Shown here: in pieces, positions 1-60,649 of the stretch | How the letters are laid out: the number at the start of each line of letters is the position of its first letter | Numbering within the stretch: the first letter of the stretch is position 1 | Virus record (IMG/VR): IMGVR_UViG_2675903313_000009 | Direction: 5' to 3' (one strand) | Source of the DNA: a virus | Taxonomy: Duplodnaviria > Heunggongvirae > Uroviricota > Caudoviricetes | Length of the DNA: 64,000 bases | Made by a program: the position numbers and the translations under genes | Notes under the pieces: model-generated | The model's input: the letters and a program-made list of their open reading frames with translations, nothing else | Told to the model about the DNA's origin: nothing | The model's database searches: none

Positions 1-1503
1 GTTTCTGGCGCTACGCCGGTAATGCGTGATTCTGAACACTTCTTCTTTGATCTGCCCTCTTTCAGCGAAATGTTGCAGGCATGGACCCGCAGCGGTGCGT
101 TGCAGGAGCAGGTAGCAAACAAAATGCAGGAATGGTTTGAATCCGGCCTGCAACAGTGGGATATCTCCCGCGATGCGCCTTACTTCGGTTTTGAAATTCC
201 GAACGCACCGGGCAAATATTTCTACGTCTGGCTGGACGCACCGATTGGCTACATGGGTTCCTTCAAGAATCTGTGCGACAAACGCGGCGACACTACCAGC
301 TTCGACGAATACTGGAAGAAAGACTCCACCGCCGAGCTGTACCACTTCATCGGTAAAGATATCGTTTACTTCCACAGCCTGTTCTGGCCTGCCATGCTGG
401 AAGGCAGCAACTTCCGCAAGCCGACCAACCTGTTTGTTCATGGCTATGTGACGGTGAACGGCGCAAAGATGTCCAAGTCTCGCGGCACCTTTATTAAAGC
501 CAGCACCTGGCTGAATCATTTTGACGCTGACAGCCTGCGTTACTACTACACTGCGAAACTCTCTTCGCGCATTGATGATATCGATCTCAACCTGGAGGAT
601 TTCGTTCAGCGCGTGAATGCCGATATCGTGAACAAAGTGGTGAATCTGGCGTCCCGTAACGCGGGCTTTATCAATAAGCGTTTTGACGGTGTGCTGGCAG
701 GCGAACTGGCTGACCCGCAACTGTACAAAACCTTTACTGATGCCGCTGAAGTGATTGGTGAAGCATGGGAAAGCCGCGAATTTGGTAAAGCGATTCGTGA
801 AATCATGGCGCTGGCTGATCTGGCTAACCGCTATGTCGATGAACAGGCTCCGTGGGTGGTGGCGAAGCAGGAAGGACGCGATGCCGATCTGCAGGCGATT
901 TGCTCTATGGGCATTAACCTGTTCCGCGTGCTGATGACGTACCTGAAACCGGTACTGCCGAAACTGACTGAACGTGCAGAAGCATTCCTGAATACAGAAC
1001 TGACCTGGGATGGTATCCAGCAACCGCTGCTGGGCCATAAAGTGAATCCGTTCAAGGCACTGTATAACCGTATCGATATGAAACAGGTGGAAGCACTGGT
1101 GGAAGCATCCAAAGAAGAAGTGAAAGCCACAGCTGCACCGGTAACTGGCCCACTGGCTGACGACCCGATTCAGGAAACCATCACCTTTGACGACTTCGCC
1201 AAAGTTGACCTGCGTGTGGCGCTGATTGAAAACGCGGAGTTTGTCGAAGGTTCTGACAAACTGCTGCGCCTGACGCTGGATCTCGGTGGTGAAAAACGCA
1301 ATGTCTTCTCCGGCATTCGTTCTGCTTATCCAGACCCACAGGCACTGATTGGTCGTCACACCATTATGGTGGCTAACCTGGCTCCGCGTAAAATGCGCTT
1401 CGGTATCTCCGAAGGCATGGTGATGGCTGCTGGCCCTGGCGGGAAAGATATCTTCCTGTTAAGCCCGGATGTCGGTGCTAAACCTGGCCACCAGGTTAAG
1501 TAA
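1..1503 (+). CDS. metG: Methionyl-tRNA synthetase, C-terminal portion (5' end outside window); includes C-terminal tRNA-binding domain
   Basis: Frame open from position 1; translation matches enterobacterial MetRS C-terminal region from memory; followed by hairpin terminator. Confidence 0.95.
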
Positions 1504-1524
1504 TTAAGCAACCATTCTTCACAA

Positions 1525-1549
1525 TGCCCAGCAATACGCTGGGCATTTT
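1525..1549 (+). terminator. Rho-independent terminator after metG
   Basis: Stem tgcccagc/gctgggca with 5-nt loop followed by TTTTC. Confidence 0.85.
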
Positions 1550-1586
1550 CATATAGACACAACCCCTTCTGACTTTAACAAACCCT

Positions 1587-1601
1587 AAAACAATTTGTTT
1601 T
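1587..1601 (+). promoter_or_regulatory. Early operator motif copy (AAAACAAnTTGTTT palindrome)
   Basis: aaaacaatttgtttt; one of about 10 near-identical palindromes in 5' leaders. Confidence 0.5.
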
Positions 1602-1636
1602 CTACCTTTTGTTAATTGAGATAATAAGCCACATAA

Positions 1637-1652
1637 GAAAACAAATTGTTTC
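1637..1652 (+). promoter_or_regulatory. Early operator motif copy
   Basis: gaaaacaaattgtttc, 12 nt upstream of ATG 1665. Confidence 0.5.
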
Positions 1653-1664
1653 GGAGTGGTTGAA

Positions 1665-1964
1665 ATGTTGAACATTACCCAAGCCTACCAGGTGGCATTG
1701 ATCAGTTCATCTCATACATCAGAGGAAGATGCTCGCCGATTCATGATCGCAAGCAATGAGCTGGATTGGGTTTCACAAATTGATGGCGGTTGTATTGTCC
1801 ACGCCGGGTTACAGGATGATGTCTGGAAAGACGACTTGCGTCGATATGGTATATCCGAAGGCGCGATTGCTAACATTCAGAAAGTACTTGATGTAGGCTT
1901 TGACTCTGTACATTTTGATTGTGGTGCACCGGTCGTTGAAGGGCTAGAGTGCTGGCAATGGTAA
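1665..1964 (+). CDS. Hypothetical early protein, acidic
   Basis: ORF with GGAG RBS; preceded by operator motif. Confidence 0.5.
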   Translation: MLNITQAYQVALISSSHTSEEDARRFMIASNELDWVSQIDGGCIVHAGLQDDVWKDDLRRYGISEGAIANIQKVLDVGFDSVHFDCGAPVVEGLECWQW

Positions 1965-2000
1965 TCCGGCAATCGCTTCATACTAGACAACGGAGAATTT

Positions 2001-2186
2001 ATGCTTAAAGAAGACTCATATCTACTAAAGGCGCTTGAAATGCGTGGCGTTGAACCTACAGTGAAAAACGCTCACGATATCTACCTTCAGTTTTCACCGG
2101 AGCTGAAACGGTTCATAAATCAATACGGGGTTAATGACTCAAGTGTTAAAGCAATGATAGATGATGAATTAGACCATCTCATCTAA
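2001..2186 (+). CDS. Hypothetical small protein
   Basis: 61-aa ORF with GGAG RBS. Confidence 0.4.
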   Translation: MLKEDSYLLKALEMRGVEPTVKNAHDIYLQFSPELKRFINQYGVNDSSVKAMIDDELDHLI

Positions 2187-2338
2187 TCGTTTCCTATGAT
2201 AATGGTTTTCACTTTGAGATTGTTATTTTTCATAGCTAAAGCTGATGTTTGTGGAAGGTGGATTGATAAACGGATGCGTATTTAGGTTATACAAGTGAGA
2301 AAATTGATAATATATAAACGCGATTTTTATGTGATGGA

Positions 2339-2908
2339 ATGGATGTGATGGAAACCCAGAACCAACAAACAAAACCTCTGAATAACATTTATGCGTGGAT
2401 TCTAGCGTTCATGCCTTTCTTCTTTGGAGTATCGCCGGAAGAGTATACCAATTACGCTATTATAATTGGGGGTGTAACTACCATCGGTTTGTTAGTAGCT
2501 GACAGAATGGCTCTATCGGAGTCTGGCTGTGAACCACCTTCAATTCTATGGGGGGTATTCCTCCTGCCTGTCTATCTCTGGAAGCGCGCGACTATTACAA
2601 AAGGCAGCAGAGTGCCATTTATCATAATCGTTGCGTCGCTGGCTTGGATTATCTTCATCGGCATCCCACACAAGGACGAGGTTGCTCTTGAAGAAGCAGC
2701 CTGCCCTCTCGTGACAACTATTCTGAAAGAGAATAACGGTTCGACTGCACCAAAATGTATGAAGGTGACAATAGAGGACAAGGTGACGGATAAGTTCTAT
2801 AGAGCAACGGCTACACTAGACAATGGTAATGACATTAACATTACTCTGGAACTTACCGGCGACAGGAACTTCTACGTCCGTGTTCCAAATGTTTATCTGA
2901 ACAACTAA
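2339..2908 (+). CDS. Predicted membrane protein, unknown function
   Basis: Several hydrophobic segments in N-terminal half; start codon uncertain. Confidence 0.5.
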   Translation: MDVMETQNQQTKPLNNIYAWILAFMPFFFGVSPEEYTNYAIIIGGVTTIGLLVADRMALSESGCEPPSILWGVFLLPVYLWKRATITKGSRVPFIIIVASLAWIIFIGIPHKDEVALEEAACPLVTTILKENNGSTAPKCMKVTIEDKVTDKFYRATATLDNGNDINITLELTGDRNFYVRVPNVYLNN

Positions 2909-2999
2909 CGGTTGTAACTTATTGATAATGGCGGTCACAATTTGATTCTTTTCTATAAGAATCCGTTGATCGCCACTACTCCCCTACCATACCCGCAAT

Positions 3000-3780
3000 C
3001 ACATCCTTAAATATCAATAAGTTATAGTTGTTTATACAATCAAGAAAACAACTGAATAACAGATCAACGAAACATCAACGCTTTCACCCGATTTGGTCTA
3101 AAAAATTGACGTTTTCACACATCACTTCTTATACCCGTAACTCTACGCAGCAGACAGCGCCACAGCGTCCAATTTTCACCACAGACGACCCAACACACTA
3201 CCAATAAAAACACACGCTCAAAATCGCTCCCGTTGCGTTACACAACCATATAAACAACTTATTTTCAGGCATAACAAAACAACTAAATAACACAAATGCC
3301 ATTCCCAAAAACAACCAACCTCTTTATGGCAGGCTACCGAAAAGACCCACCTCTTCTCCCCAGGCTACCGGACAACCAACCTAACTTTCACAGGCAATCC
3401 GAAAACATTCATACGCGCGATACCCACGACACGCCATTACCCAAACAGCGAAGAAACACCAGAATCACTGAAACCCCAACGAAGCCTGTAACCGCAAGGT
3501 TTCTCTCAATCCCAAAAGACACGAAACATAACAATCACGGGAAACGCCATTACCCAATACACGAATAACTACAAAAGCCTTTCACACACTCCAGACAAAC
3601 AACTCAAACACAATAACGAAAGGAATCGCCCACCTGCCATTACTCCATACACGGAGAAGAACAATCACCAAAACGACGAGAACACCCCATAGAAGAACCA
3701 CCGCAAAACGAACGAAACCACAGACACCGACAGAGAAAACAACACACCCAATTCACCAACAGAAATAGTCGCCGTATAGA
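3000..3780 (+). other. CA-rich, G- and T-poor non-coding tract (candidate long non-coding transcript)
   Basis: About 780 bp with strong A+C excess on + strand; only a low-complexity ORF without RBS; internal degenerate repeats (caaccaacct..ggctaccg). Confidence 0.4.
3106..3134 (+). promoter_or_regulatory. Candidate sigma70-type promoter reading into the CA-rich tract
   Basis: TTGACG, 17-nt spacer, TTATAC. Confidence 0.35.
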
Positions 3781-3892
3781 ACGTTCTGGAAGGAGTGAGC
3801 ATTAACGCCTATAGAGAGGTTGAGACAGATAAAACACGAAGAAAACACAACATGTATAGCGAACAAGACAGGTATGTATAAGTGGGGAGGGA

Positions 3893-3916
3893 AGGAGGGG
3901 TGTCGCCTCCTTTTTC
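3893..3916 (+). terminator. Rho-independent terminator at end of CA-rich tract
   Basis: Stem aggagg/cctcct with 7-nt loop then TTTTT. Confidence 0.7.
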
Positions 3917-3980
3917 GTATTTATTCAACTCCTGATTTTCATCCCCCGTAACACCCCTACGGTCAGCCTTCGGTCCATAC

Positions 3981-4120
3981 AGGGAAAAGGCTGCATCCCG
4001 CTACAGAAACGGCTGGGTTGCCTTCGGGGAACGGCTGGAGGTTTTCAGGGAAACGGTCGAGTTGCCTATGTGGATTTCGGGAAAAGGCTCGATGCCGGTT
4101 CAGGAACGGTGGCGTACCGG
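3981..4120. repeat. Direct-repeat array A: about 6 units of ~21 bp with core GGGAAACGGC
   Basis: Units agggaaaaggctg / agaaacggctgg / ggggaacggctgg / agggaaacggtcg / gggaaaaggctcg / aggaacggtgg at about two helical-turn spacing. Confidence 0.6.
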
Positions 4121-4445
4121 TATAGCGAGAGGGAGAGTTGCGGCTACCCACCTGTAATGTGCGGGAAGAAGAGAGGCGCTCACGTGCAGGCAGACTAACT
4201 TACCGTTGGACTCCCTTTGAATGCCCAACTACAGCGTAATTGTGCCAGAGAGTCAGCGGGTCACAATCGATTTCAGTAGGTTTTCGGGGAGAGGATTATT
4301 CTGCTCACCAGCCACTTTCGGCCACTAAATCAGAATAATGTAAAAAGTGTACTCGGTACTAAACCTGAAAACTCACTGCCAAAACCACATTCACCGGAAT
4401 AAAATCCTTTTTCGCCTGTGCGTTATTGCGATAATAACACCATCA

Positions 4446-4466
4446 AGAAAACATGTTGTTTAAGGA
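4446..4466 (+). promoter_or_regulatory. Early operator motif copy
   Basis: agaaaacatgttgtttaagga, immediately upstream of ATG 4474. Confidence 0.5.
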
Positions 4467-4473
4467 TTGCTTT

Positions 4474-4803
4474 ATGTTTGCAAATATCGACATCAACCAA
4501 ATCAAGAAAATGACTCAAAAAGAGTTTGACCAGTTTTATGAGTTAGAAGGTTGGTCTTCCACGCTGATCAATTCGCGCTGGGTGCTTGAGCTGATGACTC
4601 GTGATGATGCTCCTGCTTTGATTATTTGCGACCTGGGTGATGATGCTGACTTTATGGATATGAGCGAATTTTGTGTGGACACATACAACCGCAGCCAGAA
4701 GTACTACTTCACATGCGATAGCGAGAATGACGTTATTTCTAAGGTCTATCTTCACCTTGTCCAGCATTGGGACGTTCAGGAGTTTCTTGAAGTATTCGAG
4801 TAA
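4474..4803 (+). CDS. Hypothetical small acidic protein
   Basis: ORF with AAGGA RBS; Asp/Glu-rich. Confidence 0.5.
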   Translation: MFANIDINQIKKMTQKEFDQFYELEGWSSTLINSRWVLELMTRDDAPALIICDLGDDADFMDMSEFCVDTYNRSQKYYFTCDSENDVISKVYLHLVQHWDVQEFLEVFE

Positions 4804-4928
4804 CCCCAACCAAAGCCAGCATTGCTGGCTTAATTTCTCTATAGCCGCAGGGAAGAACCTGCATATCGCTCATGCACCTGATCAATATGCTTTGTAGCCG
4901 TTTTCTTACTGGTATTATTTACGCCATT

Positions 4929-4950
4929 GAGAAAACAAGTTGTTTACGGA
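4929..4950 (+). promoter_or_regulatory. Early operator motif copy
   Basis: gagaaaacaagttgtttacgga upstream of ATG 4957. Confidence 0.5.
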
Positions 4951-4956
4951 GTTGTA

Positions 4957-5268
4957 ATGAAAAAATCATTGGTTCTTGGTCTGGACAAAGACCAGAAGAA
5001 AAAAGAGAAGCCTGCGCTGGTTGCTCAATTAACTTTGCTGGACATCGTTGCCAATGGAACCTCTATTCGTCTGTTCCGTGAAACAGCGGTGTCTTTCGAT
5101 AAAAACACCTTTACTCGTTATGTAATGAATGTTCGTCGCCAGCGTGGAAAAGGCTGGGTGGCATTTCAAAGAATGTGGCCGGAACATCAGCTCGAACTGG
5201 CTTTGATGGAAGTTAACCGCGTGGCCCAGCAAGAAATTCAGAGAGCATCAGTGATGGCAATAGCCTGA
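4957..5268 (+). CDS. Hypothetical small basic protein
   Basis: ORF with RBS; followed by terminator. Confidence 0.5.
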   Translation: MKKSLVLGLDKDQKKKEKPALVAQLTLLDIVANGTSIRLFRETAVSFDKNTFTRYVMNVRRQRGKGWVAFQRMWPEHQLELALMEVNRVAQQEIQRASVMAIA

Positions 5269-5302
5269 TAATGTGCAAGTGGTAATTAGTCGACCGTACG
5301 AC

Positions 5303-5331
5303 AGCCCCGCCATCCTTACGGGGCTTTTTTT
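5303..5331 (+). terminator. Rho-independent terminator
   Basis: Stem agccccg/cggggct followed by T7. Confidence 0.85.
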
Positions 5332-5336
5332 GTATT

Positions 5337-5352
5337 GTAAGTACATACTTAC
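5337..5352. promoter_or_regulatory. Palindromic TAAGTA..TACTTA motif copy
   Basis: gtaagtacatacttac, perfect palindrome. Confidence 0.4.
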
Positions 5353-5395
5353 GATCATAGAATAGAAAAATAACCAATACACTACGGAGAGTGAA

Positions 5396-5791
5396 ATGAC
5401 CGTTAAACGCGAAAAACTGACAGTTGATGTTTACTATGCCTCTGAAACCGCCGAAGGTAAGAATGTGGCAAAAATCACCGTTGTTACGTACAACACCGAA
5501 ACTGGTGCCGAAGTCCAGGCCAGTACGATCGTGCGTAAAGGTGATGCCTCCGGCGGCGAGTACGCGACTCAATACCAGTCCATTCTCGATGCAACTGACC
5601 CGCTGCTGCTGAAAATCGAGAACTACTTCCGCCAGGTTGATGAAGAGGTGTTTGAAACCATGATGAATATGGTTAACACCGTATTCGCCTCCAGCCTGAA
5701 TACCAACACTACCTGGATTGGTCAGTACGGCCTGCGCATTACCTCTGGCATTCCTGCCGACACCTTAATCCCTGAAAGCGTATTCGCTTAA
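5396..5791 (+). CDS. Hypothetical protein
   Basis: 131-aa ORF with GGAGAG RBS. Confidence 0.5.
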   Translation: MTVKREKLTVDVYYASETAEGKNVAKITVVTYNTETGAEVQASTIVRKGDASGGEYATQYQSILDATDPLLLKIENYFRQVDEEVFETMMNMVNTVFASSLNTNTTWIGQYGLRITSGIPADTLIPESVFA

Positions 5792-5835
5792 TCCTCTTTA
5801 AATGGCGCGTAAACCGCGCCATTTTATTAAGCCCG

Positions 5836-5856
5836 ATAACAATTTGTTTTCTGCCT
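5836..5856 (+). promoter_or_regulatory. Early operator motif copy
   Basis: gataacaatttgttttctgcc. Confidence 0.5.
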
Positions 5857-5908
5857 TATCTGATTTGTGAAAATGATTTCACTGAAGCAAGTTAATAAGG
5901 AAACCATC

Positions 5909-6283
5909 ATGGGACTTGATATCTATATCGAGACACAGCCTAAAAACGATCTGAATAACGAGGCATCCAGAAAGCAGGTTGCTTACTTCCGTAAGTTCAA
6001 TGCGCTCGTTGGGTGGATGGAGCGCAACGTAGGTGAAGTCGAAAATTGTGAGCTTTTAGAATTAACGATGAATGACATTTGTTTTCTGAAGGCTCATTTG
6101 ATGCACATAAACGAAAGTAATTGCGAAGAGTACTTGCCTACCCGGGAAGGTTTTTTCTTCGGCAGTCAGGAGTACGATGAAGGTTACTGGCATGATGTGG
6201 GGCAGTTGAAAGAGCTTGTGGAAGATCTGATTAAGAACCACGACTTTCACAATAACAGACTGACCTTCTGCGCCTGGTGGTAA
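5909..6283 (+). CDS. Hypothetical acidic protein
   Basis: ORF with TAAGGAAA RBS; start chosen at ATG 5909 rather than upstream GTG. Confidence 0.5.
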   Translation: MGLDIYIETQPKNDLNNEASRKQVAYFRKFNALVGWMERNVGEVENCELLELTMNDICFLKAHLMHINESNCEEYLPTREGFFFGSQEYDEGYWHDVGQLKELVEDLIKNHDFHNNRLTFCAWW

Positions 6284-6285
6284 AT

Positions 6286-6429
6286 ATGGGCGATTTCAAG
6301 AAACGCCTGAAGGAAAGAGCCGAGATGGTCAGAAAGCAAAACGCCTCTTCTGTCATCAGATACGCAAGGCAGTTTAGTCGCAACAACAAATCAGTTGAGG
6401 AAAAGATCCTTAGCGTAATCGGTCGATAA
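6286..6429 (+). CDS. Possible small basic protein (47 aa), translationally coupled
   Basis: ATG 3 nt after upstream stop; below ORF-track size cutoff. Confidence 0.3.
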   Translation: MGDFKKRLKERAEMVRKQNASSVIRYARQFSRNNKSVEEKILSVIGR

Positions 6430-6434
6430 TTATT

Positions 6435-6458
6435 AAGGCCATCAATGCTGGTGGCCTT
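6435..6458 (+). terminator. Hairpin, possible terminator
   Basis: Stem aaggcca/tggcctt; weak T tract. Confidence 0.4.
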
Positions 6459-6483
6459 AAATGACCATCCTGTTTCCCGCAGG

Positions 6484-6560
6484 CTAAAAACACCAACCTC
6501 TTACCTCCAGGCAACCGACAAACCCACCTGTTCCCGTCCGGCTACCGCAACTTTCCACTT
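6484..6560 (+). repeat. Second copy of CA-rich element (about 75% similar to 3312..3395)
   Basis: caccaacctctt..ggctaccg..ctttccac shared with the large CA-rich tract. Confidence 0.45.
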
Positions 6561-6596
6561 TGACGCCTTATTCGTACAACGATAATTAACACCAAC

Positions 6597-6620
6597 AAGA
6601 AAACAATTTGTTATTTACGA
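6597..6620 (+). promoter_or_regulatory. Early operator motif copy
   Basis: caagaaaacaatttgttatttacga upstream of ATG 6634. Confidence 0.5.
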
Positions 6621-6633
6621 TAAGGAATTAATC

Positions 6634-7116
6634 ATGAATTTTATCGCTACTGTAAACGCACCCGCACATGGCAATATCGCTGTAACGTTCTCTGACATTG
6701 AAAAACGAGTACTTGGTGCATGGCGCGACAATGAGACGGTAGAACTGTCAGCACAAGAAAAATGCATTATTGCACGCGACATCATTGGCAATCGTCGTTA
6801 CTCGCGGGTATTTGAGAAAGCGTATGTGGTAAATTCTGGATTCGGAACGTTCGTCTTTCCGGTGCGCTCCGGGCGATTCTGCCAGTCCAAGCTGATTGAG
6901 TTCGCTACGCAGATTTCTGTCTGGATTAAAACTCAATCGTCGTTCAAATTTTCCGACGATGAAGCAGTATCGCAGGGGATGCGGATCGCCAACAATGCGA
7001 TTAAATGCAAAAACATTACGTATACCGCTGGCGTTGATACATGGAAACTGTTTTGCGCTAACTTTATGCTGAATGTATACGCAAGCAACCGCATCCACAT
7101 CCTTGATGGCGTGTAA
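6634..7116 (+). CDS. Hypothetical protein
   Basis: 160-aa ORF with TAAGGAA RBS. Confidence 0.55.
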   Translation: MNFIATVNAPAHGNIAVTFSDIEKRVLGAWRDNETVELSAQEKCIIARDIIGNRRYSRVFEKAYVVNSGFGTFVFPVRSGRFCQSKLIEFATQISVWIKTQSSFKFSDDEAVSQGMRIANNAIKCKNITYTAGVDTWKLFCANFMLNVYASNRIHILDGV

Positions 7117-7124
7117 CTGAGAAG

Positions 7125-7147
7125 AGGGCCAGAAACGGCCCTTTCTC
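7125..7147 (+). terminator. Hairpin terminator after 6634..7116
   Basis: Stem agggcc/ggccct then TTCTCT. Confidence 0.5.
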
Positions 7148-7255
7148 TATAGCCACCAGCTGCCGCAGGGAAATTTTCAGAAACGGCGAGGAACGTATTC
7201 ATGAGCCGACGGGGAACGGCCAGGATTTTTTCGGGAAACGGCTGCATTCGCCTTT
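7128..7255. repeat. Direct-repeat array B: about 4 units with core G(G)AAACGGC
   Basis: cagaaacggcc / cagaaacggcg / ggggaacggcc / gggaaacggctg; same core as array A. Confidence 0.55.
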
Positions 7256-7660
7256 GTGTAGAAAAAACATCGGGAAGCTGGTGGAATCCAACCAGCGGTT
7301 GTCGGACAGGTGAGCGGGGAAAATTATGATGACTTTCGTCACCTGAGACATCCAGATTTCTTTCGTGGCATAATCACATACGTGATTAAGTGGTGTGATT
7401 ATGTGAAAAATCACGCGCACATAATACGCGAGCGGATACAGAACAAAACAAAATGCCGATCCGCACCGACAAATAAACGCGGATCACATAGCAAGACTAA
7501 AAGCCAATGATTAACCATACTCTATAGCGCAATATAACGCGTTTTAAGCGCGTTAATGTGTTAAGTAATGGGCATGTACTGGTAAGGATATAAAAGCGCG
7601 TCTATGGCGTTATTTTGGCGCTTATTTTTATGTTGTTGGAGTGAGTTAAAGACAATAAAA

Positions 7661-7680
7661 ACGCGCCATCATTGGCGCGT
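7661..7680. promoter_or_regulatory. GC-core palindrome acgcgcca..tggcgcgt
   Basis: 20-bp inverted repeat in AT-rich intergenic region. Confidence 0.3.
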
Positions 7681-7707
7681 TATGGTGGGAGTATTGGAAA
7701 CGAAAAA

Positions 7708-7726
7708 AGCGCCCATAGTGGGCGCT
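7708..7726 (-). terminator. 19-bp palindrome agcgcccatagtgggcgct with flanking A/T runs (copy 1); likely bidirectional terminator
   Basis: Perfect inverted repeat directly downstream of minus-strand gene 7732..7962. Confidence 0.55.
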
Positions 7727-7731
7727 CGATT

Positions 7732-7962
7732 TTATTTGTGTAAACTGATTTTAAATCCCATTTCTACAAACGCTTTTAGCATTAAAAATATATCAGCGTC
7801 GTTCACGTCTGCTTTTTTTCGCTCCTGGTCGCTCAATAAGTCAATTTTGTGCGTCGTTTCATCTATAAGCTCGACTGCGCGCCCAGCGTAACCAGCGATC
7901 CCAGCGATGCGATTAACATAATATTCATTATGGACGTTAACGCCAGCGATAAGAACAAACAT
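7732..7962 (-). CDS. Hypothetical small protein
   Basis: 76-aa ORF in AT-rich minus-strand block. Confidence 0.4.
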   Translation of the reverse strand: MFVLIAGVNVHNEYYVNRIAGIAGYAGRAVELIDETTHKIDLLSDQERKKADVNDADIFLMLKAFVEMGFKISLHK

Positions 7963-7983
7963 GATTAAGCTCCTTAAAAAAAA

Positions 7984-8187
7984 TTAAATAGAATTTTGAA
8001 GTTTTCCGATTAATGCGCTTAAACGTAAGTATTCACGTTTGCGCTTGCAATCTCGCTTGCTGTTAAGCAAATCAGAAAACGTAAAATTTAATTGGTCGCG
8101 TTGCGCGATTAAATCATCGATTAATTCCAGTTTATAAGCGCGATACTTTGCGCGATATTCCGCGCGGATCTTGTCATAGCTGACCAT
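7984..8187 (-). CDS. Hypothetical small basic protein
   Basis: ORF with GGAG RBS before ATG at 8187; Lys/Arg-rich. Confidence 0.4.
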   Translation of the reverse strand: MVSYDKIRAEYRAKYRAYKLELIDDLIAQRDQLNFTFSDLLNSKRDCKRKREYLRLSALIGKLQNSI

Positions 8188-8204
8188 TTTTAAAGCTCCT
8201 TTAA

Positions 8205-8223
8205 AGCGCCCATAGTGGGCGCT
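8205..8223. promoter_or_regulatory. 19-bp palindrome agcgcccatagtgggcgct (copy 2)
   Basis: Identical to 7708..7726; lies between two minus-strand genes. Confidence 0.4.
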
Positions 8224-8235
8224 TGATTCCATTAA

Positions 8236-8895
8236 TTACGCTTTGAAAGCATCAGCTAAATAATTGTAGAAATCATTTTTAATGAAGCGATATTGCTGAG
8301 TACCAGCTTTCGCGCTCCCAGCTCCTTTGACTTTTTCAACAAGTCCAAGACGTTCGCAAAGATTGATCAACTGGTTGGCTTGAGTATAGCCAGCGTCCAA
8401 TTTAATTTCACACGCTTTTTTAGCTTCATTCATTAAATCGAAAACAGCGCCATTGGTGAACGTGTCGATCTCGTCGTTAATCATATCGATTAAAGCGAAT
8501 ACACGAGATCCTGACATATCAGCGATGGAATAAACGCATTTACCAGATTTAATTGATTTAACCAGATAAACCAGTTTTTCCAGAGAATAACTATTAGTCA
8601 TTGCATCACGGAAAAATACTTCTGGCGCTTGTTTGCTTGCTTTAATCGCATAGTAGAAAACAGAGCATAATTTTTCGTCTTCTACAGCGTTTACAACGTT
8701 GTTGATGAAGTAAGCAAGTTTCGTGGTCGCAGCTTGCATATTTGCTTTGTCTGTTTTAGTGTGCGTACCATTTTTATAATGTTCGTTATATGTTTGAGTC
8801 GCCAGATCTGCTTTTTCGCGCAGCTCGTCGGATACAATAGATGCAGCTTCAATGATGGACTTTTTAGAAATGATAACGTTAGCCATGATGGACAT
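8236..8895 (-). CDS. Hypothetical protein
   Basis: 219-aa ORF, AT-rich. Confidence 0.55.
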   Translation of the reverse strand: MSIMANVIISKKSIIEAASIVSDELREKADLATQTYNEHYKNGTHTKTDKANMQAATTKLAYFINNVVNAVEDEKLCSVFYYAIKASKQAPEVFFRDAMTNSYSLEKLVYLVKSIKSGKCVYSIADMSGSRVFALIDMINDEIDTFTNGAVFDLMNEAKKACEIKLDAGYTQANQLINLCERLGLVEKVKGAGSAKAGTQQYRFIKNDFYNYLADAFKA

Positions 8896-9140
8896 CCTTA
8901 CGAAAAATTAAAATGAATTTATTTTTTACTGTCGTTAGCTAGCTCGCTTTCGACGAGTTCAATTATCGATACGTGAAAAAAGATTGCAAGTATTTTTTTT
9001 AAATTTTTTGCAGGGATGAAAGCCCTAGAAATAAAAGCGAGATCGTCGAAGGTGTTCCCTAAATAAATAATCAATTCGGGCCTTTAACCTTATATATTTA
9101 TACAGAGTGGCATTGAAAGAGTTTTAAATGAATGGCATGT

Positions 9141-9168
9141 AAAATAATAACCGGGCTTAGCCGGTTAT
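9141..9168 (-). terminator. Rho-independent terminator (minus strand) after 9182..9706
   Basis: Stem aaccgg/ccggtt followed by T-run on minus strand. Confidence 0.65.
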
Positions 9169-9181
9169 TACCCTTATAGAT

Positions 9182-9706
9182 TTAAAATGGAAGGATTCGT
9201 TCAACCCAATCGAAGAAAACAAGTATTTTTCTGCCGTCTTCTAACTTAAGAGTGACCTGGCAAGCATCAACGCCTCTTGACACCCCTTCAATTTCACGAC
9301 CGTCTGCCATGTAGACCCTTATAGATTGGTCGTTTTGATAAGCCTTGCGACATATCGCAAAAAAGTCACGGCGTGATGGCTGATTGTCAACATAGTCTGG
9401 ATGTATTGTTAGCCTACCTTTGAACTCGCGAGCAATGCCATCGATTACACCTGATTCAATTGTGCTAATGCGCTCAAGTGGGAGTCTTATACGATTTTCT
9501 TTATCATATGGAAGCGGGCATAAATCTAGCTTATTGCGGGAAGGCATTGTCCCCTGAACGTACATGCAAAACACCTGACCGTCTTCAAGCGTGACTCTTA
9601 CAGGAATGTTGTTCTTCCGCCAGAACATAAGTATGTTTTCAGCATGTTCGTAGTCTCGCGGCCAGACTTCAGCCGGTATGCCGTAGGTGATGTCCAATGT
9701 TCTCAT
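9182..9706 (-). CDS. Hypothetical protein
   Basis: 174-aa ORF; overlaps upstream gene by 4 nt. Confidence 0.5.
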   Translation of the reverse strand: MRTLDITYGIPAEVWPRDYEHAENILMFWRKNNIPVRVTLEDGQVFCMYVQGTMPSRNKLDLCPLPYDKENRIRLPLERISTIESGVIDGIAREFKGRLTIHPDYVDNQPSRRDFFAICRKAYQNDQSIRVYMADGREIEGVSRGVDACQVTLKLEDGRKILVFFDWVERILPF

Positions 9707-10317
9707 TCTGATACTCTTAGAGGTGTTTTCAGCAACCCAAATTTAAATTCTTTGTTACCAACGACAAAGAAGGGAACCTCAACATAGATTTTTTTATCGA
9801 CGGATTTAGAGTTAGCTGTTTTCTGTATGTCACGAACGATACGTTTTGAGATATTTTCATCGATAAACAATACCTTTCCACTTGTATTCCCTTCAGCCTT
9901 GGCGTAAGTAACGATAGGCTCTTCATTGCCAACCCTAATGTTTACTTGGCAACCTGTTGTAGCCATTTCATCACAGTAAAGTGTGCCGTCTTGAACTTCT
10001 AAAACAATTCCAGATGGCTTCATGGCTTCGTCAGAGTTTACATTAACGTTTTCTGGTACAGCGGTCCCGTTAATTTGCAACCGTAATCTTTCTTTTCCTC
10101 CATTAAGTATTGTTTCTTCTGCGTTGTCTGAGAATCTGAACCAAACTGGCTGATTCAGACCTCGTGATTTGTATTCTACTACGTCTTCGGAGGTAAACAT
10201 GCTGTACGTTTTTTGCATGTCAGAGACGAAATCTGATAATGCGTTGGCGGAAAACGCCGGGAGGCATATACAAGCAAGGAGTAACGAAATTTTCATTTTC
10301 ATATCATGATAATCCAA
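9703..10317 (-). CDS. Predicted secreted protein (N-terminal signal peptide)
   Basis: N-terminus MKMKISLLLACICLPAFSANA; true start probably a few codons inside the ORF. Confidence 0.55.
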   Translation of the reverse strand: MDYHDMKMKISLLLACICLPAFSANALSDFVSDMQKTYSMFTSEDVVEYKSRGLNQPVWFRFSDNAEETILNGGKERLRLQINGTAVPENVNVNSDEAMKPSGIVLEVQDGTLYCDEMATTGCQVNIRVGNEEPIVTYAKAEGNTSGKVLFIDENISKRIVRDIQKTANSKSVDKKIYVEVPFFVVGNKEFKFGLLKTPLRVSE

Positions 10318-10806
10318 TTATTTAACATCACACTTTCTAAGTTTTTCTATTTGTTCTAATTTTTCATGATCATCATTTAGATTTCCTTCGACTATCTCCG
10401 TTTCAAGTTTGCTGATTAGCATGTTAAGTGCGTTGTAGTTATTGCATTTTACTTTGTAGGCGTAGTATGACCTTGTCCCTGGTTTTTGTACACCCATATC
10501 ATTAAAGTTAGAGCTTAAAGTATAACCTTCAAGTTCAACCCCTTTTATTGTTGGAAGAATTATATTTAATGGTTCTAATTTAAATGGGTAGATATAAATA
10601 TGTGATATGAAGTACTCTTCTGAAGAGATTTTCTTCATGTCTTTTGTGATTGAAGCTGAATATTTACGGTTCCGAGTGATATAAAATTTTGTGCATTTGT
10701 ACAACTCTAGGTTGAATAGATAATATTTATCTTTAAAAAGAACATCTTTTCCATGTGATATTTTATGTCGTAAAGAGTTAATTATTTTGTTTATGGAAAT
10801 ACTCAT
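10318..10806 (-). CDS. Hypothetical protein, Lys-rich
   Basis: 162-aa ORF abutting downstream gene; low GC. Confidence 0.5.
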   Translation of the reverse strand: MSISINKIINSLRHKISHGKDVLFKDKYYLFNLELYKCTKFYITRNRKYSASITKDMKKISSEEYFISHIYIYPFKLEPLNIILPTIKGVELEGYTLSSNFNDMGVQKPGTRSYYAYKVKCNNYNALNMLISKLETEIVEGNLNDDHEKLEQIEKLRKCDVK

Positions 10807-10951
10807 CTACAGTATCCGACCTTAGTTATCAATTGAAAAGCCTACAAATATCGTTCTGCCAATCAAGAAATTTTTTCAGCCGGAGGTGTGTGCTTCAAAA
10901 AATGTGATGAATATCACATGCAGGTGCTCTCATACACCTGCATGTAGACTA

Positions 10952-11551
10952 TTAATCATTCAATAATCTATATTTTCTTTTGATTAAATCTTCACCTTTT
11001 TTGGTGAACACAAAACCAAATTGCGATTTTTTGTTCAGCCTAAGTACTCTGTTATCCAACGCATCGGTTGATGGAATCAATGTTTGATCATCTATCCAAT
11101 TAAGTAGCGTAAGAAAGTTCAGCAGCCTCAACGTTGTTGTGCGAAGCTCTTTCGATATATTTTCAATGCTGGCAATTCGTCTTTCTTTTTTCTCAGGTGG
11201 TACAGATAATTGTTCTTGAGGTTTCGTGGATAGATAATCAATTTCGTTTGCTGCATCGAATGATATGTGTGGCGTAATTTTGCTAAAAAAGCCTTTCGCT
11301 GACTCACTTGATAATAAACCAGACCTATTCATATCGTTTGTTATTCTGTACAGGAGTGGACTGTGTTTCATTTCAGGATAACGTTGATAAAAGTTAAGCA
11401 ATTCAAAAGCAGCATTAGCGCCAACAAGAAAATCAGAAGGATCGCTGACTTTCCAGAAAGAATGATTTTTCTTAGCGCCAGTGGTGTCAACAAATGATAA
11501 TTCTTTTAACCAACTCATGATGTGCTCCTTTCTAACAAGTGAGCACATCAT
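10952..11551 (-). CDS. Hypothetical protein
   Basis: 199-aa ORF, low GC. Confidence 0.5.
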   Translation of the reverse strand: MMCSLVRKEHIMSWLKELSFVDTTGAKKNHSFWKVSDPSDFLVGANAAFELLNFYQRYPEMKHSPLLYRITNDMNRSGLLSSESAKGFFSKITPHISFDAANEIDYLSTKPQEQLSVPPEKKERRIASIENISKELRTTTLRLLNFLTLLNWIDDQTLIPSTDALDNRVLRLNKKSQFGFVFTKKGEDLIKRKYRLLND

Positions 11552-11583
11552 AGAATTAGTAGATAGGGGGTAAATATGAAATG

Positions 11584-11862
11584 TTACGGCAACCTGCTCA
11601 GTATTTCCTCTAGATCTTTTTTTGTCATATTGGAGTTCTCATAGATGCGCATGATTTTCTCACGCGTCTTAGCGGAAACCCCAACGGCAGATGTGACTTT
11701 GTCAAATTCAGCCATAGTCATCGTCTCCAGAATGGCATTGATAACTTCAGCCTTAGACATCTTGATTTTTTTCTCTTTGAGTTTTATTTGAAATTTTCCA
11801 AGTTTTTCATTGGCTTTATCAGACAATGCCACTTGGCAATAAGTTGTTTTTTTTTCGCTCAT
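11584..11862 (-). CDS. Hypothetical small protein
   Basis: 92-aa ORF overlapping helicase stop. Confidence 0.45.
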   Translation of the reverse strand: MSEKKTTYCQVALSDKANEKLGKFQIKLKEKKIKMSKAEVINAILETMTMAEFDKVTSAVGVSAKTREKIMRIYENSNMTKKDLEEILSRLP

Positions 11863-11864
11863 AA

Positions 11865-13424
11865 CTAATCTCGTTTCAGAACTCCAAAATCGAATGTGCC
11901 ATCAATTGGCAATACACCTTCTGCAAAGCCAGGTGTGGTGTCGATGATGTGTTTTCGCTCATAAGAGTGAGACAACAGGTATTTGTTGCTAATGTCAATG
12001 AAATCAGTGATAAAACACACGTTTGCCTGATTTTTTTTTGCTCGTAAGCCACGACCGACACGCTGTCTCATTTCAACTTCTGCTTTCCCACCACCAGCAA
12101 GAATGACCGCGCCCACGCTTGGCACATCAACACCGACATCCAGAATAGTCGAGCCTATTAAAACATCTATTTCGCCAGACGCTAAACTGTTCAGCTTTGC
12201 TTGCCTTGTCGCCTGGTTCGATTCCCCATAAATGAAGTCAACTCTAAGGCCGGACTCCTTCATCATCTCCATCAGGATTTGCCCGTGGCGTTTAAGACGA
12301 ACCAGAGTCATACAATTGAGAGAATGTTGCTTATAGAGCAATGCTTCGCGCACAATGGCCTCGTTACGTCCCAAATTATACACGATCCCCAACTGATAAG
12401 CCTTTTGGTAGGCAGTGCTCATACCAACTCTAAAATTGAGGTGTTTGTTGGCAAGTTCGGCCTTGATTCTGGCCTCGTCTGGCTTGTAGGCAACTTTATG
12501 ATAAAGGAAGTACGGCTTTGCCAGAATGCCTCGATCAATCAGGTACTTTTCTGTGACTTTAATTTCAATTCGCCCGGCCACCGCCATCAGGCGCATGTTG
12601 GCTTCCGTCGAATCCTTCATGAACGGCGTGGCTGTAAGCGCCAGACGATAGTCTGCGTTCACACATAATCTGGCAATGTCATAGAAATTAGAGCCTGAAG
12701 ACTCATGCGCTTCTTCCAGAATAAGCAGAGACACACTTGAAAGGAAGCGTTTCACTAGCTCCCGACGTTTGAGGTGGTAGCTCTTTTTATCTGGTGTTGC
12801 ATCGCGTGGTGGTTCTTCAAGGAAACTTGCCAGAGTTTGAACTGTAGCGACGTTGATATGTCGTGATACCTGGAACTCACCCGAGCCAATGACTCCAACC
12901 TTTTGGCCCTTTAACCACGGTTCGCCATTTTCGGCGCGGTAGTCGATGGATCTCTGGAAGTTTTCGGCCATTTGAAACATCAGAACAGAGCGGGTTGTTA
13001 AAAATAATGTCATTCGACCGATACGTGCAGCTGCTTTGCAGGCAACATTAGATTTCCCGCCACCAGTAGCGATCTGCGCAATCATCATTCCCTCTCGAAC
13101 CAGTGTTTCCACAGTCTGATCCTGATACGCATAATCAGGATTGTATGGGAATGGGTTAACCGCTGGATTTGGTTTTCCAAGCGCCGGGGCTTTGTCTTTG
13201 CGGATATGAACACATTTGATGCCCGCCTTGTTCAAGTTCGCCGCTACAGGCTTGGCAAAGCCAGCAGGGAACGAGTTTTTACTCCAGTTGAACATTGTGC
13301 TTGTGCCCTTCCAGTCGCCAGTCTCGACTTCGTAGCTCAACATCTGTTGCACCATTTGCTTTACCTTGTCATCTGCGCCAGAAATAAGCGCATTAACTGC
13401 GTTAGATACAATCCGAACAGTCAT
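11865..13424 (-). CDS. Superfamily-2 (DEAD/DEAH-like) helicase
   Basis: Walker A ATGGGKS, DEAH-like LILEEAH, motif III LTATP. Confidence 0.8.
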   Translation of the reverse strand: MTVRIVSNAVNALISGADDKVKQMVQQMLSYEVETGDWKGTSTMFNWSKNSFPAGFAKPVAANLNKAGIKCVHIRKDKAPALGKPNPAVNPFPYNPDYAYQDQTVETLVREGMMIAQIATGGGKSNVACKAAARIGRMTLFLTTRSVLMFQMAENFQRSIDYRAENGEPWLKGQKVGVIGSGEFQVSRHINVATVQTLASFLEEPPRDATPDKKSYHLKRRELVKRFLSSVSLLILEEAHESSGSNFYDIARLCVNADYRLALTATPFMKDSTEANMRLMAVAGRIEIKVTEKYLIDRGILAKPYFLYHKVAYKPDEARIKAELANKHLNFRVGMSTAYQKAYQLGIVYNLGRNEAIVREALLYKQHSLNCMTLVRLKRHGQILMEMMKESGLRVDFIYGESNQATRQAKLNSLASGEIDVLIGSTILDVGVDVPSVGAVILAGGGKAEVEMRQRVGRGLRAKKNQANVCFITDFIDISNKYLLSHSYERKHIIDTTPGFAEGVLPIDGTFDFGVLKRD

Positions 13425-48412: not shown

Positions 48413-48437
48413 GAGGTGCTGCTTGGCACCTCTTTCT
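48413..48437 (+). terminator. Terminator after partition operon
   Basis: Stem gaggtgc/gcacctc then TTTCT. Confidence 0.65.
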
Positions 48438-48449
48438 ATAGGTTCCCTA

Positions 48450-60125: not shown

Positions 60126-60200
60126 GATGGTGTAGCTCAGCGGTAGAGCAGTTGGCTGTTAACCAACTGGTCGGTGGTTCGAATCCACCCACCATCGCCA
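60126..60200 (+). tRNA. tRNA-Asn (anticodon GUU)
   Basis: Cloverleaf folds by hand; anticodon loop CUGUUAA; CCA encoded; not the E. coli Asn tRNA sequence. Confidence 0.85.
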
Positions 60201-60205
60201 ATTTA

Positions 60206-60292
60206 GGGGAGTTAGTCCGTAGAGGTAGCGGTGTAGACTGTAAATCTACTGTCATGGCGACTCGGGTGGTTCGACTCCATCACTCCCCACCA
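60206..60292 (+). tRNA. tRNA-Tyr (anticodon GUA), long variable arm
   Basis: Anticodon arm gtaga-CUGUAAA-tctac; acceptor ggggagt/actcccc; CCA encoded. Confidence 0.75.
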
Positions 60293-60296
60293 AATT

Positions 60297-60372
60297 GCCG
60301 GTTTAGCTCAGTTGGTAGAGCAGTCGCTTTGTAAGCGAATGGCCAGCGGTTCAAGTCCGTTAACCGGCACCA
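60297..60372 (+). tRNA. tRNA-Thr (anticodon UGU; assignment tentative)
   Basis: Acceptor gccggtt/aaccggc; anticodon loop UUUGUAA with one mismatch in stem. Confidence 0.65.
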
Positions 60373-60462
60373 ACACAACAGGTAAGAGCATTGGGCGAAT
60401 CGGCGATACTGACCCACAAGGCCGTAAATCGATAGAGTCAGACCAGTGCTCTTACCGTTGTG
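60373..60462 (+). other. Long stem-loop H2 directly after tRNA-Thr
   Basis: acacaacaggtaagagcattgg pairs with ccagtgctcttaccgttgtg. Confidence 0.45.
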
Positions 60463-60562
60463 ATGAATGCACAGGCTGATGTGCCGCAACTACAGTAGTG
60501 CGCGCTTTGCGGGGCTTGCTACAACCCTGTGTCGGAGTTCAGTACCGACCATCACAATAGCT

Positions 60563-60649
60563 GGAGAGTAGGGAGCATGGTGCTCAAGCGGTCTTGAAAA
60601 CCGTTCCATTGTGCAAACGATGATGGTTCGATTCCATTACTCTCCGCCA
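60563..60649 (+). tRNA. tRNA-Ser (anticodon UGA), long variable arm
   Basis: Acceptor ggagagt/actctcc; anticodon loop CUUGAAA; CCA encoded. Confidence 0.8.

Follow-up and report, generated by a model that had tools for sequence, protein, structure and literature searches.

A CA-rich, G-poor non-coding tract conserved in SSU5/pHCM2-type phage-plasmids and its possible role as a Rho-loading barrier

What keeps a gene-free tract of about 780 nucleotides (nt), rich in C and A and poor in G on one strand, in place in a phage genome? The question is raised by positions 3000 to 3916 of a 64,000-nt stretch of viral DNA (Caudoviricetes; IMG/VR record IMGVR_UViG_2675903313_000009), which is called the window below. 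A sequence-only reading had described the tract as long, CA-rich, G-poor and non-coding, with its own promoter and terminator, and had suggested a Rho-dependent leader or a decoy RNA. The long non-coding tract itself was borne out by composition, by coding tests and by conservation. Our preferred reading, to which we give a probability of about 40%, is that the tract acts in cis as an oversized zone of Rho loading and termination, a barrier or attenuator at the seam of a co-oriented circular genome.

By its matches, the 64-kb window was assigned to an E. coli phage-plasmid of the SSU5/pHCM2 type with a replicon of ~110 kb. The first open reading frame (ORF) of the window encodes the C-terminal 493 amino acids (aa) of methionyl-tRNA synthetase; the window is nevertheless non-chromosomal. 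Region 2900-4450 had matches in 243 of 5,426 complete E. coli genomes (4.5%), all of them on plasmids of ~100-120 kb and 0 on a chromosome. The identity of this region was 97.5% to Escherichia phage Cyrano (strain LF82) and ~68% to Salmonella phage SSU5. The synthetase gene is part of phage-plasmid cargo, consisting of full-length metG and apbC/mrp, which occupies window positions 1-1503 and the sequence upstream by homology to NZ_CP195946.1 58008-61299. The same two genes are adjacent on the E. coli chromosome. The cargo at this position differs in relatives, where DUF262, DUF4145 and other genes were found.

The composition of the tract was determined on the + strand. Over 3000-3916 it was A 0.394, C 0.287, G 0.148 and T 0.171; over 3000-3780 it was A 0.40, C 0.31, G 0.12 and T 0.17, and over the core at 3135-3780 it was A 0.404, C 0.330, G 0.127 and T 0.139. 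The earlier estimate by eye was right for A (40%) and slightly too high for C (35%). In 700-nt segments, A+C reached a peak of 0.726 in the tract, against a mean of 0.498 for the window with a standard deviation (sd) of 0.031, a distance of more than 7 sd. No other region exceeded 0.62 in the window or in the rest of the ~110-kb replicon, and the tract has the most extreme strand composition of both. The excess of C over G, which had been proposed for a strand-specific check, was unbroken over 3049-3787 (739 nt; C 0.32, G 0.12); this is the longest such run on the + strand, the runner-up having 248 nt.

Such a sequence could in principle encode a protein of low complexity, with much Thr, Pro, Asn, Gln, His and Lys. 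The longest open frames had 227 codons in pHCM2, a Citrobacter plasmid and L016, and 192 codons in a Klebsiella plasmid, and two ORFs were called in the region by the Cyrano annotators, both of them automatic calls. Long open frames arise here because T is scarce and stop codons are few (~4%), although 227 codons is longer than this stop frequency predicts. In SSU5, L021 and the window, stops break these frames, and the indels between lineages were not multiples of three. When substitutions were counted by codon position, the tract frames were flat (12/13/12 for the longest open frame, 13/14/10 and 15/15/12), whereas three neighbouring genes, used as positive controls, gave 10/15/45, 11/16/41 and 7/4/33, a 3- to 5-fold excess at the third position. 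The ORFs within the tract gave 0 matches to Pfam or PHROG, whereas all 8 flanking small genes matched PHROGs with E-values of 1e-44 to 1e-124. No Shine-Dalgarno (SD) sequence precedes the frames. PGAP calls no gene here and leaves ~1.55 kb (2909-4452) gene-free, and 1.4-1.9 kb was empty in every relative fetched. The codon-position test rules out the low-complexity protein as a candidate, and the tract almost certainly encodes no protein. Searches for known RNAs were negative: Rfam had no match in 2900-4460 at E <= 1 in a scan of 1-12000, with weak sub-threshold matches elsewhere only, and a tRNA/tmRNA scan of 2500-4600 found none.

The + strand RNA of the tract has the traits of a Rho substrate because its composition is confined to A and C. 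The preferred substrate of Rho is RNA of at least ~80 nt that is untranslated and unstructured, rich in C and poor in G. The fold of 3140-3916 had -122.8 kcal/mol for 777 nt and was no better than that of shuffled sequences (z = -1.1). For 150-nt segments, the minimum free energy was -7 to -19 kcal/mol in the tract, compared with a mean of -36.6 kcal/mol (sd 8.0) for the window. Of the 20 least-structured segments of this length in the 64 kb, 13 lay in the tract, and a second C-rich element was also among them, at 6451. Start codons were 11-fold fewer in the tract (4.7 vs 54 per kb) and SD-like words occurred at 3.1 vs 9.8 per kb. The sequence traits of a rut site, namely a C-rich, G-poor stretch of at least ~70-80 nt with little structure and no translation, are present, and the likeness to a Rho-binding RNA that had been noted from the letters was supported by the C-over-G run, the weak predicted folding and the rarity of start and SD words.

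Expression of the region could be read from strand-specific RNA-seq of E. coli LF82 carrying Cyrano. The data are a gene-level table of ten lysogen samples, lytic conditions lying outside them, with values given as log2 of fragments per kilobase per million plus 5, log2(FPKM+5) (PMC9928086 Table S1). The table spans annotated features and covers the tract at ~3028-3384 as CYRAN_103. The upstream gene on the same strand, CYRAN_102 (2339-2908), had values of 5.6-9.2 and was reported as a 'moron' at 6-fold over background (PMC9928086). CYRAN_103 was at 2.32 (0 FPKM) in both LB samples and at 4.3 or less across all ten; CYRAN_104 (~3874-4278) was at 2.6-4.7, and CYRAN_105, the next real gene downstream of the tract, reached up to 7.5-7.8 in macrophage samples (PMC9928086). 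At the gene level, which is not nucleotide resolution, CYRAN_102 had ~57 normalised counts against the floor of 5 (0 FPKM) for CYRAN_103. CYRAN_103 stayed near zero (FPKM ~14 or less) even where the next genes reached ~40-220 FPKM. Since CYRAN_102 is expressed and CYRAN_103 is near zero even with CYRAN_105 on, transcription that arrives from the cargo appears to end where the tract begins in the carrier state. No intrinsic terminator was predicted between 2908 and 3889.

The position of the tract is also particular. Nearly all genes of the replicon lie on the + strand of the window, and the cumulative GC skew of the reconstructed ~111-kb circle (the window plus L013) rises almost monotonically from a global minimum at 3760. 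Because of this co-orientation and the skew minimum, the tract is placed at a seam where the gene array's tail, with DNA-metabolism genes and cargo, meets its head, with small genes followed by packaging and structural genes. The RepFIB origin at ~80 kb leaves no inflection in the cumulative skew.

The following features were recognised in and around the tract.

2929 to 2975, + strand: two-tier hairpin (inverted repeat) that follows the upstream gene's stop codon at a distance of 21 nt, seen in the alignments and folding in all lineages tested.
3040 to 3136, + strand: highly conserved block, from the conservation profile and the alignment, which holds AAGAAAACAA.T.AATAACA and a cluster of GTTGAY/RTCAAC hexamers.
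3140 to 3780, + strand: core of the CA-rich, G/T-poor tract, non-coding, its + strand RNA predicted to be unstructured.
3250 to 3266, no strand assigned: copy of the palindromic candidate operator GAAAACAAnTTGTTTTC with 3 mismatches, near-perfect in the SSU5 and Klebsiella lineages.
3314 to 3405, + strand: three tandem 31-nt modules of the form ACC(A/C)ACCTCTT-N5-CAGGCTACCG, with the word CAGGC observed 4 times against 0.5 expected.
3433 to 3664 (at 3433, 3546 and 3636), + strand: three dispersed modules of the form GCCATTAC(C/T)C(C/A)A(T)ACACG(G)AGAAGAAC, present in 3-6 copies in relatives.
3877 to 3916, + strand: purine-rich block (TATAAGTGGGGAGGGAAGGAGGGG) and hairpin AAGGAGG-loop-CCTCCTT followed by a T-run, a 3' boundary resembling an intrinsic terminator.
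3976 to 4125, + strand: six ~22-nt repeats GGGAAA(A/C)GGCTGG..., a G-skewed segment right after the tract in the same 1.55-kb gene-free region.
6433 to 6551, + strand: second short C-rich element, with a hairpin at 6433-6460 (no T-run) and two 31-nt modules (6492 and 6522).

We infer both Rho action at the tract and a regulated passage through it from the sequence. A polymerase that crosses the tract on the + strand, coming from the expressed cargo genes or from weak internal promoters, would make an RNA that is unable to fold, its A/C alphabet having no pairing partners, and that would recruit no ribosomes, there being almost no start codons or SD-like words. Rho would load on this C-rich, G-poor RNA and the polymerase would be released. 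The naked RNA would then be trimmed by exonucleases back to the conserved hairpin at 2929-2975, as the 3' ends of Rho-terminated transcripts are trimmed back to upstream hairpins; such trimming would explain zero coverage so near the upstream stop codon. The tract would in this way part the variable cargo (metG/apbC and small morons), which is on in the plasmid state, from the silent small phage genes that lead to the packaging and structural genes. The 31-nt modules, the GCCATTAC modules and the operator copy embedded in it are probable binding sites for a phage or host factor that would modulate passage in lytic growth.

Besides the Rho-substrate traits, the apparent selection on composition, the lysogen expression values and the position at the seam, this reading is supported by the second element at 6433-6551. 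There too a hairpin that lacks a T-run precedes C-rich modules, and the element stands after CYRAN_109, a gene expressed in the lysogen. Several points weigh against it. At ~780 nt, the tract exceeds the needs of a rut site about tenfold, and insulation could be had at lower cost from an intrinsic terminator. Several relatives with the immediately upstream gene on the opposite strand still keep the tract, and there is little to insulate in them. Zero reads within ~120 nt of the upstream stop is faster than usual Rho action and requires the 3' trimming. A simple rut site calls for neither repeated modules nor a tightly conserved length. The RNA-level traits all derive from the single fact of the A/C composition and are not independent evidence. 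The middle of the tract (~3385-3873) lies outside every annotated feature of the expression table, and no antiterminator or Rho inhibitor was recognised among the neighbouring genes.

If the tract does act as a Rho barrier, it would account for two things: that cargo can be expressed during plasmid carriage while the phage genes next to it stay silent, and that transcription does not run right round a circle whose genes are fully co-oriented. It would also offer studies of Rho loading a natural rut element of great length and modular build. Phage-plasmids of the SSU5/pHCM2 type are frequent in clinical Enterobacteriaceae, and cargo that includes resistance genes is borne right beside the tract region. 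In case the tract acts in trans or as an origin instead, it would represent a novel type of regulatory element in phages. Literature searches found no description of the CA-rich element, and the annotations of relatives leave the region blank; the element appears to be undescribed. Searches for lytic-phase transcriptomes of SSU5-like elements turned up the LF82 lysogen data set alone.

Conservation among relatives was examined with 62 further IMG/VR loci collected by a conserved word, from which 52 distinct homologues were obtained and, at below 95% identity, 20 representatives. The identity of the tract drops to ~67%, and all 52 distinct homologues keep A at 0.34-0.40, C at 0.28-0.32, G at 0.12-0.18 and T at 0.15-0.19. 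TTGACG and the TATAAG block downstream of it lie 740-818 nt apart (median 787), a spacing constant within ~5% despite ~76-80 gap positions between lineages. Even the least conserved alignment columns had A 0.29, C 0.31, G 0.20 and T 0.19, and lineage-specific insertions that are absent from the window had A 0.33, C 0.375, G 0.12 and T 0.18. The composition is not merely that of the conserved motifs, because the variable columns and the insertions are also CA-rich. Substitutions between A and C were the commonest (348), followed by A<->G (284) and C<->T (268). Judged from these alignments, the A/C alphabet itself appears to be kept and the composition to be under selection.

Conservation starts sharply at ~2918, and the gene content to the left varies between relatives. 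The conserved blocks are 2929-2975, 3040-3136, 3212-3275 with the operator copy, the 31-nt modules, the GCCATTAC modules, an A/C block at 3625-3785, and 3877-3916. The search for related genomes that had been proposed with the sequence-only reading found the CA-rich part in 839 PLSDB plasmids (distant search) of at least seven genera, with length and composition conserved; the carriers include Klebsiella, Escherichia, Enterobacter, Salmonella (pHCM2 of S. Typhi CT18), Citrobacter and Cronobacter. This retention, the length held within ~5%, the blocks at 90-100% identity and the substitution spectrum that maintains the A/C alphabet argue against a decaying remnant or neutral spacer whose composition comes from a mutational or duplication bias, and a comparable bias is found nowhere else in the 110-kb replicon. 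A remnant would fit with the position of the tract beside a recombination-prone cargo hotspot and with a fragment passively carried in a non-phage Klebsiella plasmid; we regard it as very improbable. The Klebsiella fragment, at 2040-3140 of locus L011 (Klebsiella pneumoniae pC51_001, NZ_CP042482.1), lies on a large non-phage IncFIB/IncHI1B plasmid, has only the first ~700 nt of the tract and is accompanied by the neighbouring DUF262 gene and by IS5; it is a recombinational fragment of a phage-plasmid. No comparable tract was found beside the homologues that gene 5396-5791 has in phiKO2, in a Proteus phage and in an N15-like phage of Klebsiella, the highest A+C over 300 nt being 0.60-0.65.

The hairpin at 2929-2975, which marks the onset of conservation, has the outer stem TGGCGGTCA / TGATCGCCA and the inner stem GATTCTT / AAGAATC with the loop TTCTAT, and is followed by C-rich sequence with no T-run. 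No covariation was found in it; the outer stem is invariant, so this result is uninformative either way. Exact matches to the IHF consensus (TATCAATAAGTTA) at 2915-2927 (- strand) and 3012-3024 (+ strand) form a perfect 13-bp inverted repeat around the hairpin. They are 2 of the 6 such matches in the window; one other E. coli lineage has them in part, and SSU5 lacks them.

The promoter and terminator that had been proposed for the tract stood in part. The promoter-like sequence within the block at 3040-3136, TTGACG (3106-3111) and TATACC (3130-3135) with an 18-nt spacer, is nearly invariant in relatives. As a sigma-70 promoter it is a poor match: the final T of the -10 box is missing in all lineages, which have TATACC or TATATC, and the consensus scan omits the site. 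No transcript was seen downstream of 3106-3135 in LB lysogens (0 FPKM over ~3028-3384), and the element yields no stable RNA in lysogens. At the other end, the hairpin and T-run at 3889-3916 were called by the terminator scan and fit the definition of an intrinsic terminator in the window. In the other lineages a hairpin of a purine arm and a pyrimidine arm is kept, the T-run is interrupted, and the pair changes are one-sided, with no formal covariation. The terminator, earlier described as clean at 3893-3916, is thus present and canonical in this lineage only.

A second promoter may be linked to the operator copy at 3250, which lies just 3' of a -10-like box, TTGCGTTA(T/C)A, as at the other transcription-unit starts of this genome. 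The window contains 12 sites of the 17-bp palindrome GAAAACAAnTTGTTTTC, where 0.84 would be expected. A -10-like box precedes every copy by 10-14 nt, and a start codon follows it at 15-35 nt; the copies stand before the small genes flanking the tract, a parA-like gene and the packaging genes. By analogy, this genome-wide motif could serve a master repressor as its operator, in the manner of P1 C1, or its copies could be partition sites scattered over the genome, like those of N15 and phiKO2. The sites are at 1586, 1637, 3250, 4447, 4931, 5835, 6599, 9215, 16798, 16823, 47328 and 51356.

These boundaries would suit a trans-acting non-coding RNA of lytic development, starting at TTGACG-N18-TATACC or at an operator-linked promoter at ~3230 and ending at the 3889-3916 hairpin. 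Such an RNA could be a decoy or sponge, with Rho as the obvious candidate target, or a scaffold bound at the GCCAUUAC and 31-nt modules. The promoter-like sequences upstream are conserved, a terminator-like hairpin lies downstream, the length is conserved, the modules are repeated in an unstructured context as in sponge RNAs, and the operator copy at 3250 could confine expression to the lytic phase. In LB lysogens, however, the ~360 nt at ~3028-3384 gave zero reads, and they were near zero while the next genes were on; the decoy RNA suggested earlier is unlikely if it is meant to be constitutive. The -10 box is non-canonical, the operator-linked promoter is degenerate in this lineage and the terminator is canonical in one lineage only. 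Rho also translocates off RNA, which makes simple titration inefficient. There was no Rfam match, and known sponge motifs were not enriched: the CsrA motif GGA occurred 4 times against 5.0 +/- 2.1 expected in the window and 6-16 times in five other lineages, all within ~2 sd, and for Hfq/Crc, (ARN)x4 occurred 1-2 times against 0.7-1.5 expected and (AAN)x4 0 times (composition-matched shuffles, six lineages). The CsrA-sponge and Hfq-sponge readings were rejected on these counts. We consider a trans-acting RNA quite improbable.

Copies of the 31-nt module were found three times at 3314-3405 and twice at 6492-6551, all in the same orientation and nowhere else in the replicon. In the dispersed modules, GCCATT was observed 4 times against 0.12 expected, and CCATTAC occurred in 3-6 copies against 0.1 expected in six lineages. 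The two extra 31-nt copies confirm that an element related to the tract recurs near 6484-6560, as had been noted from the letters. This second element is directly 5' of a conserved promoter (TTTGAC at 6559-6564, a 16-nt spacer and GATAAT at 6581-6586) and the operator copy at 6599-6615, and the site is conserved in the SSU5 and Klebsiella lineages. The gene before it, a strongly basic 47-aa ORF (MGDFKKRLKERAEMVRKQ...) at 6286-6429 that PGAP omits, is the equivalent of CYRAN_109, which was expressed 6-fold over background in LF82 lysogens (PMC9928086).

The placement of 31-nt modules at 6492-6551 directly 5' of a conserved promoter, as activator sites would be placed, also fits a function at the level of DNA. 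The tract could be part of a lytic origin, for example one prone to R-loops if transcribed leftward with the G/T-rich strand displaced, or an array of protein-binding sites made up of the GCCATTAC modules, the 31-nt modules, the GTTGAY hexamers and the downstream GGGAAACGGCTGG repeats, for replication, packaging or regulation. The 1.55-kb gene-free region is dense in repeats, some with an iteron-like spacing of 21-31 bp, including the GGGAAACGGCTGG repeats at 3976-4125, and its GC skew turns from strongly negative at 3000-3780 to positive at 3800-4250, with the global cumulative minimum at 3760. Among the proteins encoded by the replicon are RecA, DnaE, a 5'-3' exonuclease and RNase HI (the last frameshifted and truncated in the relative that was examined), protein kinds used in R-loop- or recombination-primed replication, and the silence in lysogens is equally compatible. 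The skew minimum was not used as evidence of an origin, as it is largely produced by the tract itself together with the co-orientation of the genes and is not independent. No DnaA boxes and no Chi sites were found in the tract, no convincing conserved leftward promoter was seen, and the GC content of 0.43-0.50 is not AT-rich, unlike that of unwinding elements. Binding sites alone would leave the CA-rich variable columns and insertions unexplained. The plasmid rep gene lies ~33 kb from the tract, with 15 copies of the iteron GTATGCTGTCAGCGGT there and 0 in the tract; the tract was rejected as the iteron origin of the resident RepFIB-type replicon, whose rep and iterons are elsewhere and different. 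We hold a DNA-level element to be possible but unlikely.

Known R-loop origins (ColE1 RNA II, T4 oriF/oriG and the T7 primary origin) resemble the tract in being promoter-flanked non-coding regions of extreme strand asymmetry, and its replicon has the RNase HI gene, frameshifted in the relative examined, and the 5'-3' exonuclease. They differ in that the conserved rightward promoters of the tract would give a G-poor RNA, which disfavours R-loops, and a leftward promoter is not convincingly conserved.

By composition and context, the closest known kin of the tract would be the Rho-dependent leader terminators of phages and phage-plasmids, such as lambda tR1 and the immunity leaders of P4, P1 and N15. 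The tract differs from them in its size, its modular repeats, its lack of an alternative structure or antisense RNA and its position at a seam. In lambda, boxB is embedded between rutA and rutB, boxA lies upstream, and nutR lies within the rut site of tR1. Like lambda nutR/tR1, the tract is an untranslated CA-rich, G-poor stretch 3' of repressor-controlled promoters, with embedded modules, that gates downstream phage genes in our reading; the CCUCUU(U/A) of the 31-nt modules resembles lambda boxA (GCUCUUUA / CGCUCUUA) and differs at its first base. Unlike nutR/tR1, it is about ten times longer, its modules have no boxB-like hairpin and no N-like protein was identified. A lambda-type nut site was not found: there is no exact boxA (YGCTCTTTA / CGCTCTTA), and the modules have only CCTCTT(T/A/C) and no stable hairpin.

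The immunity leaders of P4 (timm), P1 (immI c4/icd-ant) and N15 (CA RNA) belong, like the tract, to a phage-plasmid or satellite; in our reading they also share with it a long leader that would be open to Rho for want of translation, so that lytic functions are kept silent in carriers. Their sequences are unrelated to it, and they use a small antisense RNA from the same leader that pairs with repeated targets, whereas none was found for the tract. A P4/P1-like antisense pairing of the purine block (3883-3899) with the CCACCUCUU / CCACCTCTT modules was rejected, the purine/pyrimidine matching being loose and not tracking between lineages. The mgtA, corA and rho leaders and the Rho-antagonising element of mgtCBR are C-rich, unstructured 5' leaders that decide between termination and read-through, as the tract would, but they are 100-300 nt long, chromosomal and switched by structures or ligands, whereas the tract is essentially without structure. 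The sponges CsrB/CsrC and CrcZ are likewise non-coding RNAs with many short repeated motifs in a single-stranded context, unlike the tract, in which GGA and (ARN)n/AAN are at composition-expected levels, no Rfam match was found and no expression was seen in the carrier state. A resemblance to the RfaH ops element (GGCGGTAGnnTG) was rejected as well. The reverse complement of the 31-nt modules, CGGTAGCCTG, matches 9 of the last 10 ops positions, with the first two G missing, and the word sits on the other strand from every neighbouring gene and promoter; it was treated as a chance resemblance.

The tract might also lie at the heart of a system by which the phage-plasmid controls host Rho through RNA, a proposal that we rate as a long shot in either of two versions. 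In the first, a lytic transcript could trap or titrate Rho or another factor that binds single-stranded RNA through the modules, leading to genome-wide antitermination without a Psu- or N-like protein. In the second, the tract could be a one-way Rho gate that is opened by a factor at the 31-nt and GCCAUUAC modules and so acts as a switch between plasmid maintenance and lytic growth.

Other sequences of the neighbourhood were noted. About 4 copies of the ~22-nt G-rich repeats also occur at 7160-7250, after gene 6634-7116, and further ones at 4850 and 5146; apart from the copies at 3976-4125, the motif GGGAAA(A/C)GGCTGG itself recurs at 7212-7250 and 5146 only. The repeats are confined to these sites of the replicon and have no relation to the iterons of RepFIB. 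Another word, TTTCTATAG(C/G)C, lies directly after terminator hairpins at three gene ends (4830-4845, 7138-7155 and 48428-48442), and a similar word, TTTCTATAAGA, is the loop of the conserved 2929-2975 hairpin, with related sites at 2950-2959 and 7522. Words of the form (C/G)TATAGC(C/G) cluster at 3.8-8.4 kb.

Homologues of gene 5396-5791 (phrog_2473) are found in or near lysis cassettes, as phiKO2 Gp62 after a holin-like gene and as a Proteus phage gene between Q and lysozyme. Given these homologies, late or lysis functions may be present in the early-looking cluster of small genes that follows the tract. A 61-aa ORF at 2001-2186 had a weak, sub-threshold Pfam match to the RecBCD inhibitor gp5.9 of T7 (E = 0.006, 16.9 bits vs a cut-off of 24.5). 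Four tRNA genes (Asn-GTT, Tyr-GTA, Thr-TGT and Ser-TGA) lie at 60126-60649. The Cyrano counterpart of this segment is the hypothetical protein CYRAN_43 on the opposite strand, reported as a 'moron' at 723-fold over background (PMC9928086), and its signal is most likely that of the tRNAs.

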